Positions 1 to 5,382 of a DNA stretch of 5,382 nucleotides are shown one piece after another (within the stretch, counting starts at the first letter, position 1; every line of letters starts with the position of its first letter). The stretch comes from a virus (lineage: Duplodnaviria > Heunggongvirae > Uroviricota > Caudoviricetes), in IMG/VR virus record IMGVR_UViG_2563366830_000003. One strand, written 5' to 3'. The notes beneath the pieces were generated by a model. It saw nothing but the letters and a program-made list of their open reading frames with translations. It did no database searches and was not told the DNA's origin. The translations under genes were made by a program, and so were the position numbers.

Positions 1-15
1 GAAAGGCTGGGCCAT
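1..15 (-). CDS. Probable 5' end of the next gene in the operon (continues beyond left edge); product unknown, by position a candidate large internal core/ejection protein
   Basis: ATG at 15..13 is preceded by GGAGGAG (23..17), and the frame reads M-A-Q-P-F to the window edge. Only 5 codons are visible, so this is tentative. Confidence 0.3.
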
Positions 16-16
16 A

Positions 17-23
17 CTCCTCC
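17..23 (-). promoter_or_regulatory. Shine-Dalgarno (GGAGGAG) for the putative downstream gene
   Basis: Minus-strand sequence is CTGCCGGAGGAGTATGGCC; the spacer to the ATG is short (1-3 nt depending on which G's pair). Confidence 0.3.
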
Positions 24-83
24 GGCAGAAGCAGAAAAAGCTTATTATGCTTCCATCGGAAACGATGATCTGGCAGCCTGAGT

Positions 84-1523
84 TCACAGATAAAATACTC
101 TCCAGGAAACCCGGGGCGGTTCATTCTGCATTTCTTCTTGCTGCTGAGAAGGAGGTAAATACTGAATTGCCTGGAATATTCTCGCGTTATCAATCGCTAT
201 ATCCAGTTGATTGATTATTTTATCTGCATTTTTTCCATACCCCCTGATGATAGTCTCCTGAGCCGGTATATAATCTGGAACCTCACCGTTATATAGCTGG
301 GCCATGGTGTTATTAATAGCTGGCTCAAGCTGTTCTAATATTAACTTCCTTTGCTTTTCTATCTGACTATTAGCAAGGTTATCTATTTGATAAATAGTCA
401 GCGGATCCATTCCAGTTTTATTTTTTCTATATCGGGAAAGCCACCCTTGTGTTTCTGATGGAAGATTTCGGATAAATTCTTCTTCTGATATTTCACCTTT
501 ACGCGGATCACCGACTTTGGCGATCAGTTTATCCACGTTACCCATCCCCCAGTTATATGCTGCTCCGGTCAATATTTCTGAGCCGTACTTACCATACAGT
601 TGATTTACATAGTCACTGGCAAGCATTTCATGCTGTTGTTCGTCCGTAGGGTTGTATTCAACGCCACGTTTGGCCGCCAGTTCTTTCCCTGTGCCCGGCA
701 TTAACTGGTATTTCCCCTGGGCCCTCTCTCCAGAAGATGTTTTCGGTCCTTCAAGAATACTACCATCAGGATTAAAGTGACGATCACCTGATTCAACAAG
801 GCGTATGGCACGCATGTCCATGCCTCCAGAATCATTTTTCTGAAACTGACCATTTAACCATCCTTCCGGGTTAGCAGCGGCATAATTCTTCGCCCGCATT
901 TCTGTGGCACTGCGATCATCACTTTCTATTTCTTCCAGAATGCGTTCTTGTGACCATCCCCTGGCTGCTCCATATCTGGCAATGGCTACCATTCTGGAAT
1001 TTCTGGCTAAAGTGGCAGTTTGCGGGTCATTCCAGGCATCCGCTTCATTTTGTATCCATAATTTTCTCGTTGCCTGATATTGCTCATCTTCATAGGCATT
1101 TGTCTGCCCTATCTCATGTCTGAGAACTCCAGTACTGAACTGAATTTTCTGTGTTCTGGCTTGTTGCAAAAACATATTTCTTGCTGCTTCATCAGTCAAT
1201 GAAGCAGCTATTTCTTCCACATCCTGATCAAATCCAGATATGTACTCTTGCCCCTTACCAATCGCATTTTTGCCTTGTTGTGCATAAAAACCGGTTTGAG
1301 GGTTATAAAGACGTTCATTGCTGCGCTGATTAAGCTGAAGGATGGCATCCTGAGACAATGCAACATTCGCTTTCTGCCTGGCTTCACCATATGCCACCGC
1401 ATACTGATCTGCGACATTCGCCAGCACCTGACCTGCTTGAGGAACATCGAAGATCTGAAAACCACCGGTTTGCACACCACGACTTTGCACCTGGCGTCCG
1501 GATGTAGTAGGAACAACAGGCAT
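84..1523 (-). CDS. Virion-associated lytic transglycosylase (SLT domain) protein, 479 aa; candidate peptidoglycan-degrading ejection protein
   Basis: ATG at 1523..1521 with AGGAGG at 1535..1530 (6-nt spacer) and a TGATG overlap with the upstream gene. All three family-1 lytic transglycosylase motifs are present in order: catalytic E-S in RLVESGDRHFNP (E244, + coords 792..794), GKYQLMPGT (690..716), and AAYNWG (546..563). Confidence 0.9.
   Translation of the reverse strand: MPVVPTTSGRQVQSRGVQTGGFQIFDVPQAGQVLANVADQYAVAYGEARQKANVALSQDAILQLNQRSNERLYNPQTGFYAQQGKNAIGKGQEYISGFDQDVEEIAASLTDEAARNMFLQQARTQKIQFSTGVLRHEIGQTNAYEDEQYQATRKLWIQNEADAWNDPQTATLARNSRMVAIARYGAARGWSQERILEEIESDDRSATEMRAKNYAAANPEGWLNGQFQKNDSGGMDMRAIRLVESGDRHFNPDGSILEGPKTSSGERAQGKYQLMPGTGKELAAKRGVEYNPTDEQQHEMLASDYVNQLYGKYGSEILTGAAYNWGMGNVDKLIAKVGDPRKGEISEEEFIRNLPSETQGWLSRYRKNKTGMDPLTIYQIDNLANSQIEKQRKLILEQLEPAINNTMAQLYNGEVPDYIPAQETIIRGYGKNADKIINQLDIAIDNARIFQAIQYLPPSQQQEEMQNEPPRVSWRVFYL
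516..818 (-). other. SLT / lysozyme-like catalytic domain within the 479-aa protein (about residues 236-336)
   Basis: Motif spacing ES-x4-NP ... G-x-YQLMPGT ... AYNWG matches the Slt70/MltE-type catalytic core. Domain boundaries are approximate. Confidence 0.8.
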
Positions 1524-2098
1524 CAGTAACCTCCTATTTTGAATCGGGAGTCAGAATTCATAAAACCTGAGTTAGATAACATTGGCGTCCCACCACTAGA
1601 TGTACTTCCTTTAGAGAACGGACTCCACGTCCCACCAAACATCTGGTACGCACCGTATGCCTTCAGAGGCGCGGTGAGCAATGTTGTTGCTGCTCCCACA
1701 TTCCCCTGTTTACGGGCTGAACTGGCTTCTGCTTTATAGTTGGCAGCCTGAACCTGATAACCGTAAGCCTCGCGTTGCGCGTTATTCACCGTCGTCAGCG
1801 AATCAAGAGCGCCAAACTGGGCAGTGTCGCCAAATATATCCAGCGCGTTACCTGTAGATAAATCAGCGCCGGTAGCCCCCATTGTCGCTGCCTGTGTACC
1901 AAGCCGCTGTCGGGTCTCTCTGCGCCGTTGCTCAGCTTCAGCGTTACCTCTGTTTATTGCATCATTTGCCTGAGCAGTGGCTATATCTGCGTTCGCTTCT
2001 GCAACCTTCGAGGCATACTTTCCCTGTTGGTACTGGGTGTATGCCTGAATGCCACTCATGGCGAGCATTGCGCCACCAGCAATAACCGGATCGCACAT
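1523..2098 (-). CDS. Internal virion / ejection protein B-like (T7 gp14-like), 191 aa, with N-terminal membrane segment
   Basis: ATG at 2098..2096 with GGAGAG 7 nt upstream, inside the 3' end of the preceding gene. The N-terminus MCDPVIAGGAMLAMSGIQAY is hydrophobic and resembles the MC-hydrophobic-SG.QA start I recall for T7 gp14. The rest is Ala/Gln/Gly/Thr/Asn-rich low-complexity sequence. Its TGA overlaps the next ATG. Confidence 0.8.
   Translation of the reverse strand: MCDPVIAGGAMLAMSGIQAYTQYQQGKYASKVAEANADIATAQANDAINRGNAEAEQRRRETRQRLGTQAATMGATGADLSTGNALDIFGDTAQFGALDSLTTVNNAQREAYGYQVQAANYKAEASSARKQGNVGAATTLLTAPLKAYGAYQMFGGTWSPFSKGSTSSGGTPMLSNSGFMNSDSRFKIGGY
1530..1535 (-). promoter_or_regulatory. 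Shine-Dalgarno (AGGAGG) for the SLT-protein gene, embedded in the 3' end of the upstream gene
   Basis: Minus-strand sequence is AAAATAGGAGGTTACTGATG; the SD lies 6 nt before the ATG and is encoded by the Gly-Gly-Tyr codons of the preceding protein, indicating translational coupling. Confidence 0.6.
2039..2089 (-). other. Predicted N-terminal transmembrane/hydrophobic helix of the gp14-like protein (about residues 4-20)
   Basis: The stretch VIAGGAMLAMSGIQAYT is uncharged and hydrophobic, and is followed by polar low-complexity sequence. Confidence 0.5.
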
Positions 2099-2562
2099 TA
2101 TTTTCTCTCCATGTGAAATCTGTGGAAATTAAGACCAAGAGCACCATAAGGCGCGGCTTCTTCAAGCCTGAATCCAAGCCAGTGCAGCCATGCTTTGGCA
2201 ACATGGTTTCGCTCGTCGACGTAGTTTTCCAGGCGCGGATAAACTGCCAGCATCTGCTGCAATACAGGGCGGCAGTGGCGAAGAAATGTCTTCTGATATT
2301 TTTCAATACGGCTGGTTCCTACCAGCCAGGGCGTACCATTGCCACCGATCATTGACGCCGGAGATACGCCAAACATGGTTACCAGTTCTCCGTTCGCAAA
2401 TCCTGACCAGGCCATAGTCGAAGTACGCAGACCAACACGCAGCGCATCTTCGGTAGTCATCAGTGATACCGCATACAGTTCGTCAATATCAGCCTGACGA
2501 ACATCCGGCAAAATCATCTGAAGATGCTCTTCGGTTGCGGGAATAATTTGAACATCGATCAT
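2098..2562 (-). CDS. Hypothetical virion protein in the gp13 (internal virion protein A) position, 154 aa; possible acyl/acetyltransferase-like fold (speculative)
   Basis: ATG at 2562..2560 overlaps the nozzle gene's TGA; its TAA at 2100..2098 overlaps the next ATG. The C-terminal segment NHVAKAWLHWLGFRLEE fits the loose N..A...Y/W...GF pattern seen at GNAT C-termini. No other motif was recognised. Confidence 0.75.
   Translation of the reverse strand: MIDVQIIPATEEHLQMILPDVRQADIDELYAVSLMTTEDALRVGLRTSTMAWSGFANGELVTMFGVSPASMIGGNGTPWLVGTSRIEKYQKTFLRHCRPVLQQMLAVYPRLENYVDERNHVAKAWLHWLGFRLEEAAPYGALGLNFHRFHMERK
2105..2110 (-). promoter_or_regulatory. Shine-Dalgarno (GGAGAG) for the gp14-like gene
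   Basis: Minus-strand sequence is CACATGGAGAGAAAATAATG, with a 7-nt spacer to the ATG at 2098..2096. Confidence 0.5.
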
Positions 2563-5033
2563 CAGAACCCACCAACAGTAAGGCGAGGAATAACGGCAAG
2601 AACAGACAGCGGCAACGGATCAAGCTGACGGATTTTTACACGTCCGTTTTTGCCCCAGTTACTGTCCAGTTTCACTTCTACTTTTCCGGTAGCATCATCA
2701 ACAGGATCATCGTAGAACTCGAATTCACGCTGTGGATATTCGTACCATTTACCGCCGGGCGTAGTCGCCCAGATGCCGCGACTGGCATTCACAACCAGAG
2801 TAACGGACGGGATCACCTGTTTTTTGTCCAGCAGCGTTTCCTGTCCGTTAATGTTGATATCCAGTGTTTCGAATTCAGCAGTTATTGGCAGGCCGATGTG
2901 CACTACAGCCCCCGGAGATTCCAGTGTGACGGCACCTCCGGAAACAACTTTCTGTGGCTCAACATTCGCATCAGAAAGAATGTTTACGGTCTGTCCTTCA
3001 AGATGAGACAGGCCTCCAAATGTCCGGCGCGCCATCTGCCAGTTCGTGGTGGCCGTATTCCTGAGGGATGGCGGGACGTTCCTGTTAGCACGAACCACTA
3101 CTGCGGTATTGCTGGTTACAGAAATAATGTCGCAACGTAATTCTTTTGACACCTCATCGCCAGTATCAGGATCAGTTCCGGTATAAGGGAACTGTAGTTG
3201 CGCGCCGACATCACTACTGGTGAAGTACGCACCACCAGAAACACTGATTGTATATTCCGCGCGGTAATCCCATTCGCCAGAACCACCAGTGATGATCATC
3301 GTTCTGTCAGACGTATTTCTTCCATCATAGCTAAGGCCAGAATCAACAAAGAAAGCATCTTCATCGCTGGTAAATAAACGGCTGGACAGTCGCTCGATGT
3401 ATCTCACTGTTTGCCCGTTAACGGTTCGGTTAACGACGAAATACACCGCATCTTCATTGCCTTCGCTGATACTGCATGTGCTTTCATATTTTCCGGTACT
3501 GGACTGTGGTGCCCATGCAAAAACCTGTTGATCACGCAAATAGGTCATCACCAGTAATTTACCGTCATCACGAATGCAGAAGGCGCTGGAGTAAGGGACA
3601 ATAGAGAAGCACCAGTCAACAATGCTGTGCTTCTGAAAAAGATGATTGGCAAGGATGGTCAGGTCGTTCCCCTGATAGCCGTCAACATCGAATGAGTAGG
3701 CCAGATCACGGACAACACTGCCTTTCTCCTGGACGAACAGAGCAATATTCGCCACGGCAATTGGTGGGACATTGCTCGAGCCATTTGATCCCTGAGAGCT
3801 GAATGCAAATGATGATGGGGTAAGCACTTTGTTCTGGTCGCCGGTGATGACGTACTCACCTCCGGAAGTCAGCGCCACCAGCGAACCGACATCAATCAGG
3901 TGGCGGATCTCATTAACCTGACGCCCGGCATAGGTGTAGATAATTCTGTCGTCATCCTGCGTAGGATTGCTTTTGCCAAAATCCTTATAATCCCCGGTAC
4001 GGCTGACCCAGATAGTCTGAGGGAACGCAGTCGATGCGGCGAAGTAAAGACGTTGTTGATAATAAACAACAGTGCCAGGATAACCATTAACACTGTTCCA
4101 GGCATATTTAGCCCATTTATAGCTGGCATTATCCTCGCCAACTACCTGCGAAGGGATATAGGAAATCACCTCGGCAGTTGCAGTAGTTCCATTTGCAGCA
4201 GTGATACGGGCAATGCCAAAACCACTGTGCAGATATTCCCACTCAATGCCAGTATCATCATCACCGGATCCGCCCCAGCCATCCCATGATGTGCCTTCTG
4301 TATGCGAAGGGCGCAAAGTGCCTGTTTTGCCTACTGTAACGGCGCGATAGTAGTTACTGTCTGCACGGCGAATATCGCCAATTGACGTACTCTTACTGGT
4401 TTCCCATACCGGCACAGAATCCACTGCAGGCTGTTCCAGATAGAACAATTTGCCTACCTGCTCCGCGCCAAAAATAGAGGCGCTTGCCGTTAACGTAATT
4501 GTCCCGGTGCTGGCGCTGGCATAAACCGTCACTGACTCGTCAATATTGATATCTTCAAATGGTCCGTTCTTCGTTACCACATCAACCAGTTGCCAGTTGT
4601 CATGCGCATAGCGACGCAACTCTTTCGGCGGGTATGCCGGATGAACAAGCGTAAGCACGTCGGCGCTTTGCGTGAATTTAATTCGGAACAGATCGGCTTC
4701 AGTATATGGCGTGGAAATTTCATAAATAACATTGCTGCTGTTCAGCACCAACGCACCATCTTTGATAACGCGCATGTACTGGTGTCCGAACTCCAGAGCA
4801 TAAGTCTGAACCGTCGAGAACTGGAACGGGATCAGGCGGCATTTCCGATTTGGGTATTTGGCGGCACCGACAAAACGCGTACCAGGTCGATTCTCAACTC
4901 CGCCATACTGCCGCACGATAAAGTTATCGCACTTGCGCAATGCCACCTGGTACTTCGCCATGTCAATACGACCGTACAACGACGGTCCAATCTCACCACC
5001 GGCAAAGCTGGGCTGGATCCAACTGATAGCCAT
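2562..5033 (-). CDS. Tail tubular protein B / nozzle-like protein (T7 gp12-like), 823 aa
   Basis: Long uninterrupted ORF with ATG at 5033..5031 overlapping the upstream stop (TGATG) and a GAGG about 9 nt upstream. The N-terminus MAISWIQPSFAGGEIGPS, and later segments such as GGLSHLEGQTVNIL and KLLVMTYLRDQQVFAWAP, resemble T7 gp12 as I recall it. The size is in the 790-830 aa range typical of podovirus nozzle proteins. Confidence 0.8.
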   Translation of the reverse strand: MAISWIQPSFAGGEIGPSLYGRIDMAKYQVALRKCDNFIVRQYGGVENRPGTRFVGAAKYPNRKCRLIPFQFSTVQTYALEFGHQYMRVIKDGALVLNSSNVIYEISTPYTEADLFRIKFTQSADVLTLVHPAYPPKELRRYAHDNWQLVDVVTKNGPFEDINIDESVTVYASASTGTITLTASASIFGAEQVGKLFYLEQPAVDSVPVWETSKSTSIGDIRRADSNYYRAVTVGKTGTLRPSHTEGTSWDGWGGSGDDDTGIEWEYLHSGFGIARITAANGTTATAEVISYIPSQVVGEDNASYKWAKYAWNSVNGYPGTVVYYQQRLYFAASTAFPQTIWVSRTGDYKDFGKSNPTQDDDRIIYTYAGRQVNEIRHLIDVGSLVALTSGGEYVITGDQNKVLTPSSFAFSSQGSNGSSNVPPIAVANIALFVQEKGSVVRDLAYSFDVDGYQGNDLTILANHLFQKHSIVDWCFSIVPYSSAFCIRDDGKLLVMTYLRDQQVFAWAPQSSTGKYESTCSISEGNEDAVYFVVNRTVNGQTVRYIERLSSRLFTSDEDAFFVDSGLSYDGRNTSDRTMIITGGSGEWDYRAEYTISVSGGAYFTSSDVGAQLQFPYTGTDPDTGDEVSKELRCDIISVTSNTAVVVRANRNVPPSLRNTATTNWQMARRTFGGLSHLEGQTVNILSDANVEPQKVVSGGAVTLESPGAVVHIGLPITAEFETLDININGQETLLDKKQVIPSVTLVVNASRGIWATTPGGKWYEYPQREFEFYDDPVDDATGKVEVKLDSNWGKNGRVKIRQLDPLPLSVLAVIPRLTVGGF

Positions 5034-5382
5034 CAGGACAACCTCGCAATGGTAAACTCGTCAACCGGTGGCAGTGGTTCCTGTGATTCATTCTGGCTAT
5101 GCGAGCCAGCACTAAGAATCACGCGATTGTACATATTGAGGGCAAACGTACCGAGGTCTGCATTCCCAGTCAGCGCCATGTTAATAGCTGCCGCAAGACG
5201 CCAGGCCAACGCCTCCATAAAAATGGCATCAAACATGTTCACATCTGTAACGCGAGAGACATACTTGAGCCATGCCTGAGGCTGGTCTGAACCGCCCCGG
5301 GAATCCTGGAGACTAAACTTCCTGAGAAAGAGGTAAACAGGATGACTAAAAATACTCGTTTTTCCCCCGAAGTCCGTCAACG
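5033..5382 (-). CDS. Partial CDS, 3' portion only (5' end beyond right edge); virion structural protein, by position a candidate head-tail adaptor / tail tubular protein A-like
   Basis: Reading frame is open from the window edge to a TGA at 5035..5033 that overlaps the ATG of the next gene. The leading 'M' in the ORF track is a TTG at the window edge, not a real start. Function is inferred only from position immediately upstream of the nozzle-like gene; I could not confirm a gp11-like motif. Confidence 0.5.
   Translation of the reverse strand, partial: LTDFGGKTSIFSHPVYLFLRKFSLQDSRGGSDQPQAWLKYVSRVTDVNMFDAIFMEALAWRLAAAINMALTGNADLGTFALNMYNRVILSAGSHSQNESQEPLPPVDEFTIARLS

Follow-up and report, generated by a model that had tools for sequence, protein, structure and literature searches.

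The window, a stretch of 5,382 nucleotides, contained one tightly packed operon in which all of the long open reading frames (ORFs) lay on the minus strand, and at each edge it ran into an insertion sequence (IS). The most upstream gene (5033..5287, minus strand) was a 3' fragment made up of the last ~85 codons of a 201-codon gp11-like tail tubular A/connector gene, the 5' side of which was cut by the element IS#1; this assignment was based on the junction and on the length of the intact gene, which is 606 nt in Escherichia phage TL-2011b, E. coli N25 and Salmonella phage epsilon15. It was followed, on the same strand, by an 823-residue tail tubular B-like protein at 2562..5033, a homologue of epsilon15 gp12 (phrog_376, E 0; synteny with TL-2011b and epsilon15), and by a 154-residue protein in the gp13 position at 2098..2562, a homologue of epsilon15 gp13 that matched phrog_308 (internal virion protein, E 4e-63) and had no match in Pfam. 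The epsilon15 gp13 record itself carries a GNAT acetyltransferase HHpred note, an unusual fold for a virion protein in the gp13 position. The next gene, at 1523..2098 on the minus strand, encoded a 191-residue internal virion (ejection) protein of the T7 gp14 family (PF24072, 33.7 bits against a gathering score of 27 bits; phrog_418, E 1e-72). The order in which the tail tubular A and B genes precede the gp14-family gene was seen both in the matches to the tail proteins phrog_394 and phrog_376 and in the synteny with epsilon15 gp11-gp14. An ORF of 479 residues, running from ATG to stop at 84..1523 on the minus strand, came directly after the gp14-like gene, as the original prediction had stated, and overlapped it by one base. 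Each of the gene boundaries at 5033, 2562, 2098 and 1523 was such a one-base overlap (TGATG or TAATG), which was consistent with translational coupling along the tail/ejection operon. The Rfam scan of the window gave no matches.

The 479-residue ORF had been described as the carrier of an SLT-type lytic transglycosylase domain, and the searches bore this out. Pfam SLT (PF01464) matched residues 260-342 with 32.9 bits (E 5e-8; gathering score 21.3 bits), and the Pfam, BLASTP, phmmer and AF2/Foldseek results together placed the SLT (GH23-type lytic transglycosylase) domain at residues ~232-346, corresponding to 486..830 on the minus strand. The codon of the catalytic Glu244, which lies within the motif VESG, was located at 792-794. 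In the alignment, E244-S245 paired with E37-S38 of T7 gp16, of which E37 is the catalytic residue (PMC8954989). BLASTP aligned residues 224-354 with residues 13-142 of T7 gp16 at 30% identity over ~130 residues (E 3e-4). Further SLT motifs were found from residue 270 (GKYQLM) and residue 321 (AAYNWG), and the motifs also aligned to solved structures of the Slt70 type; when a 905-residue homologue was used as the phmmer query against solved structures, Slt70-type enzymes only were returned, over residues 263-332. Judged by profile and motifs, the ORF is assigned a family-1 lytic transglycosylase domain (SLT, GH23). An AF2 model built from 39 aligned sequences was confident over residues 35-470 (pLDDT 84.7). 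It began with a disordered segment (1-34) and long helices (30-223), followed by a fold resembling SLT (~237-370) and by a further helical hairpin (374-454), with low confidence in the last residues, which turned out to be IS-encoded. Foldseek against the PDB gave weak matches only for this model, to the transglycosylase Cj0843, with a best E of 0.09.

The original prediction had taken the 479 residues as a short stand-alone protein, in other words as the native and complete product of the gene, a compact transglycosylase core protein in a re-organised ejectosome. The frame open from ATG to stop and the confident model agreed with such a protein, and so did a PHROGs family of 479 positions, phrog_19141, which was matched end to end, although this family may itself derive from the same truncated allele. 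The other PHROGs matches pointed to a longer product. The ORF matched the “endolysin” family phrog_1044 at profile positions 1-491 of 900 only, and it also matched phrog_36437 (374 positions) and phrog_38128 (534 positions), with positions 1-101 of the latter falling on residues 372-472. These two families look, from the profile matches, like halves of a longer protein, and together with the partial match to phrog_1044 they suggest that the normal protein has ~900 residues. In TL-2011b (gp37), E. coli N25 (7683-10400 of the N25 sequence) and E. coli 2011C_4247, the intact gene was indeed 2718 nt long, encoding 905 residues, and was followed by a gene of 3015 nt encoding 1004 residues; a length of 905 residues was found in all of the intact relatives examined. 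Annotated complete genomes were the source of these lengths, since the wide homologue search gave mostly partial cluster representatives and was unsuited to a length census. In a global alignment with three 905-residue homologues, the ORF was collinear to residue 466 (...QQQEEMQ) at ~97% identity and then diverged, the intact proteins reading KVKPEVNDPHYALK... where the ORF read NEPPRVSWRVFYL and a stop. The same ~97% identity over residues 1-466 was found with TL-2011b gp37 (YP_007001988.1, 905 residues) and with E. coli prophage proteins such as WP_001145642.1, which have the same architecture as gp37 and are annotated as “transglycosylase SLT domain-containing protein”; in the 905-residue homologues, 463-465 of the 479 aligned positions matched, with the 13 divergent residues counted in. 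Compared with gp37, the ORF lacked residues 467-905 and had the 13-residue tail in their place.

The DNA at the point of divergence showed where this tail came from. Bases 1..123 (plus strand) were the right end of an IS629/IS1203-type element of the IS3 family (IS#2), with 97-99% identity to the right ends of annotated IS629/IS3-family copies; they comprised the last codons of orfB, whose stop lay at 79-81, and the terminal inverted repeat, ending ...CCCGGGGCGGTTCA at base 123. Within the ORF at 84..1523 (minus strand), protein alignment and DNA junctions assigned codons 1-466 (1523 down to 126) to the phage, codon 467 to both sources (AA being phage and T being IS sequence), and codons 468-479 with the TGA stop to the inverted repeat of the IS. 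It is this repeat that supplied the final 13 residues, NEPPRVSWRVFYL, as well as the stop. On the gene strand the junction was ...GAA ATG CAG AA/T GAA CCG CCC CGG GTT TCC TGG AGA GTA TTT TAT CTG TGA, with the IS to the right of the slash, or, as the joint between the phage gene and the inverted repeat, ...ATGCAGAA/TGAACCGCCCCGGGTTTCC..., in which the second part is the IS. IS#2 had duplicated 3 bp of its target site (GAA as read along the gene). One copy occupied bases 124..126 (minus strand), and the other followed the IS in the scaffold of the sister assembly; the intact sequence CAGAAAGTG has a single GAA. The opposite edge of the window had the same organization. Bases 5288..5382 (plus strand) belonged to another IS629-type copy, IS#1, of which they formed the left end. 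This copy had the same orientation as IS#2, and its left end matched that of the 1310-bp copies in E. coli N25 and SA186 with 100% identity; its inverted repeat TGAACCGCCCCGGG... started at 5288 and its orfA at 5342, and the same terminal repeat TGAACCGCCCCGGG... was present at both edge copies. Bases 5284-5287 were one copy of the 4-bp target duplication of IS#1, GACC on the gene strand.

In a megablast search against phage genomes, the window edges matched IS629 copies in Stx phages. The window was 97.7% identical to TL-2011b over 124-5289 only, so that phage homology ended at base 124; partial identity to phiV10-type phages covered 1617-5289, and identity to epsilon15 was ~75%. When the junction was searched for in complete E. 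coli genomes, some megablast alignments continued beyond base 123, as far as 135-152, where the IS lay in an unrelated context. The boundary was set at 123/124 because the inverted repeat ends and the phage homology starts there. Complete IS copies in the relatives were 1310 bp long. Since the interior of the element was represented by N runs in both source scaffolds, the identity of the IS was based on 123 and 95 terminal bases. IS629 is known to generate target duplications of 3-4 bp, and 62% of its copies reside in prophages (PMC3271280). On the consistent orientation of the ends and on the target duplications, the edge elements are classified as an IS629/IS1203-type insertion of the IS3 family. 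A sequencing frameshift was considered and rejected: the frame was unshifted, and the sequence turned into the IS inverted repeat at 123/124. The notion, raised with the original prediction, that a frameshift might have split a larger protein and left the ORF as its N-terminal part was therefore right about the N-terminal part but wrong about the cause, which was an IS insertion. Likewise, the ~140 residues following the SLT domain were present as described, but they were the severed start of a further region of ~560 residues and not a C-terminal domain.

The source scaffolds supplied the sequence beyond the window. An exact-sequence look-up found the 479-residue protein on two contigs only, in the NCBI draft assemblies GCA_000408725.1 and GCA_000408745.1, and its record (EOW44644.1/WP_016248088.1) names E. 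coli KTE130. The window corresponded to positions 6142-11523 of its source scaffold (L007) with 100% identity and was exactly one assembly contig, flanked on both sides by N-gaps (L007 4927-6141 and 11524-13233). These gaps stand in for unassembled IS interiors, and because of them the sequence after the 479-residue ORF was invisible to the original prediction. Both the IS and the assembly thus cut short whatever lies near either edge of the window. Across L007 and the scaffold of the sister assembly (L008), three insertions of one IS629-type element were found in the source prophage, all in the same orientation, in the gp11-like, SLT and 1004-residue genes (around 4825-6237, 11401-12089 and 14554-16308). 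Each of them had both IS ends and a clean target duplication (GACC, GAA and AAC, respectively) that is single-copy in the intact prophage, matching the published 3-4 bp range of IS629 (PMC3271280). In L008, directly behind IS#2, 436 codons (KVKPEVNDPHY... to the natural stop) continued in frame and aligned to residues 467-905 of the intact homologues. No secondary frameshift or stop was found in either half of the split gene.

Such joints could also have been created by the assembly, if IS reads had been wrongly attached to a phage gene that is intact in the real genome, and a short-read contig that ends in repeats, with the IS interiors left as N-gaps, is the kind of sequence in which this might be suspected. 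Against this, identical junctions were present in two separate assemblies, the contig ran 123 and 95 bases into the IS without ambiguity, and all three insertions had both IS ends correctly oriented with precise 3-4 bp duplications, which chimeric joins would not give. An assembly artefact is extremely improbable. The three insertions are simple transposition events and neither frameshifts nor assembly chimeras, and they are probably recent. Both junctions were searched for in 5,426 complete E. coli genomes and were found in none. The two scaffolds differed in the segment between IS#2 and IS#3. This 2.45-kb segment, running from the 3' half of the SLT gene into the 5' part of the 1004-residue gene, was present in L008 (11996-14648) and absent from L007, where a gap of 1710 N took its place at 11524-13233. 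Its DNA was 91-92% identical to the N25 allele, compared with 98.8% for the part within the window. Either the IS copies recombined and the segment was deleted, or its contig was left unplaced, and in the genome of the window itself the C-terminal half of the gene may therefore be deleted rather than merely separated.

The analysis of the junctions thus refutes the reading of the 479-residue ORF as a native protein. The final 13 codons and the stop are an IS inverted repeat, the gene resumes in frame on the far side of the IS, the intact relatives have 905 residues, and the allele is restricted to the two contigs; there is next to no chance that a compact stand-alone core protein is encoded here. 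We are nearly certain that the ORF is the IS-truncated front half of a ~905-residue ejection protein in an epsilon15-like prophage. On this reading, the draft E. coli genome contains a prophage of a temperate, epsilon15-like podovirus (TL-2011b/phiV10-type), and the window covers 5.17 kb of its virion-structure operon, bounded by two copies of a 1310-bp IS629/IS1203-type element in direct orientation. The ORF is a pseudogene fragment comprising residues 1-466 of the ejection protein, 13 IS residues and the IS stop, and IS#2 cuts the C-terminal ~440 residues off from the SLT domain and the helical region at the N-terminus. In combination with the IS copies in the gp11-like and 1004-residue genes, IS#2 should leave the prophage unable to produce infectious particles.

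Truncation by the IS is compatible with a fragment that is still expressed and is kept, with its N-terminal helices and complete SLT domain, as a muralytic protein for the host or a helper phage. The intact SLT domain with its catalytic motifs and the undisturbed frames of both gene halves would be expected of a retained protein, but intact frames are equally expected after a recent insertion, and the allele was limited to two closely related assemblies. Moreover, the IS in the gp11-like gene cuts the operon off from the upstream genes and presumably from the late promoter, and the fragment has no start resembling a signal peptide (residues 1-34 are predicted to be disordered), while the periplasm is normally reached through ejection from the virion. 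Retention of the fragment for its function is very unlikely. Hardly more can be said for a related scenario built on the three same-orientation copies, in which IS-flanked cassettes would be formed, the 5.17-kb tail/gp14/SLT segment would move or be lost as a composite unit, and the fragment of N-terminal helices and SLT domain, expressed through IS-borne or read-through transcription, would become a free muralytic protein useful to the host; we consider this scenario just as doubtful. The truncation by IS#2 leaves an ordinary broken prophage gene.

In the intact prophages, the gene has the context expected of an ejection protein. TL-2011b and the E. coli prophages have the same upstream genes as the window (gp11-, gp12-, gp13- and gp14-like), and the intact operon has the usual ejection layout of gp14, a large protein and another large protein, here of 905 and then 1004 residues. 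The differently organised ejectosome proposed earlier rested on the stand-alone status of the ORF and fell with it, since large proteins do follow the gp14-like gene in intact phages. From its position and from the homology of its neighbours, the 905-residue protein is likely the gp15-position ejection protein of this lineage, bearing a peptidoglycan-cutting domain. By analogy with T7, the native protein would be packaged in the capsid with the gp14-like and ~1000-residue proteins and ejected at infection; its GH23/SLT domain, through Glu244, would cut peptidoglycan locally, and this local cleavage of murein would allow a trans-envelope DNA channel to be formed with the gp14-like and ~1000-residue proteins. 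T7 likewise has an operon of the gp14-gp15-gp16 type, and the SLT domain of T7 gp16 (residues ~1-156) is homologous, with the catalytic Glu conserved. In T7, however, the domain forms the N-terminal end of the last core protein, which is also the largest (1318 residues), whereas here it is internal (~232-346) and belongs to the protein in the gp15 position. The part of the original prediction that placed the muralytic domain on a core protein other than that of T7 was thereby upheld, for the 905-residue protein of the intact relatives. Similarity to T7 gp15 itself was faint: residues 451-772 of the 905-residue protein aligned to it in pairwise BLASTP at E 0.002-0.02, and Foldseek listed the T7 gp15 chains 6yt5_A and 7k5c_A for the 479-residue model at non-significant E values of 1.5-4.1. 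A gp15-like fold of the helices flanking the SLT domain was neither backed nor ruled out by the AF2 and Foldseek analysis of the 479-residue model.

Muralytic activity is also found in phiKMV gp36, another ejection protein in the gp15 position, in which the domain is C-terminal. In phages K1E and K1-5, the muralytic domain is carried by gp35, a gp15-like protein, rather than by a gp16-like one (PMC8954989). These proteins share with the 905-residue protein a muralytic domain on the protein in the gp15 position, and the location of the domain within the protein differs. Placement of the domain on a core protein different from that of T7, and with it the domain transfer between core proteins that the original prediction had offered as an alternative, has already been described for podovirus ejection proteins, namely for K1E/K1-5 gp35 (PMC8954989), and the 2022 review of these proteins counts epsilon15 among the phages with gp14/gp15/gp16 homologues. 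Epsilon15 gp15 (842 residues), named as part of the packaging/injection apparatus (PMC12391199) and recorded as a putative lytic transglycosylase/head protein, occupies the same place directly after gp14, and its N-terminal ~250 residues are 42% identical to the ORF, but beyond residue ~250 the two are unrelated at the BLAST level. Pfam SLT was not detected in epsilon15 gp15, whose record cites an HHpred match of the SltB type. Downstream, epsilon15 has two proteins, gp16 and gp17 (634 and 918 residues), compared with one of 1004 residues in the TL-2011b lineage. No Pfam domain other than SLT was found in the 905- and 1004-residue proteins or in epsilon15 gp15 and gp16. The 905-residue protein was mosaic: its N-terminal ~250 residues were shared with phiV10, epsilon15 and SPN1S at 36-50% identity, its SLT domain with tape-measure and lysin proteins of many unrelated phages, and its residues ~496-753 with ~32-kb Vibrio podophages at 31% identity. 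The homologues of 835-838 residues of the phiV10/epsilon15 type, which are common (one cluster has 4311 member sequences), had no Pfam SLT match.

In the TL-2011b/epsilon15 lineage, the gp15-position ejection protein is confirmed as the carrier of the muralytic domain, in keeping with the published mosaicism of ejection proteins. The feature within the window is a gene of a known kind, in a prophage of a known kind, that has been truncated by an IS629-type element, and it makes no open question newly testable. It serves mainly as a caution, as an ORF that ends near a contig edge can mimic a new compact architecture when the repeat of a mobile element supplies its last codons and stop. As in the IS629, IS1203 and IS3411 insertions described in E. 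coli prophages, the inverted repeats, the 3-4 bp duplications and the preference for prophages are the same (PMC3271280), and the insertions found here add one more case in which structural genes of an E. coli prophage are inactivated by IS629-type elements. IS inactivation recurs in this prophage family. The same type of prophage was broken by IS at other sites in other complete E. coli genomes: the N25 prophage had an IS3-family copy in a Bbp16-like gene (15165-16474 of the N25 sequence), and the 2011C_4247 prophage had one in the tail tubular B-like gene (~12150-13456 of the 2011C_4247 sequence). Five further matches in complete genomes had IS3-family, ISEc8 or IS2 copies under the match, with ISEc8 in the case where the SLT gene was listed twice. 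Separately, a mosaic breakpoint was observed in the gp14-like gene at 1535-1616 of the window, where TL-2011b was unaligned (its gp14-like protein has 181 residues, compared with 191 in the window). The identity to phiV10-type phages began at 1617, and downstream of the breakpoint the SLT gene was a module different from those of phiV10 and epsilon15.
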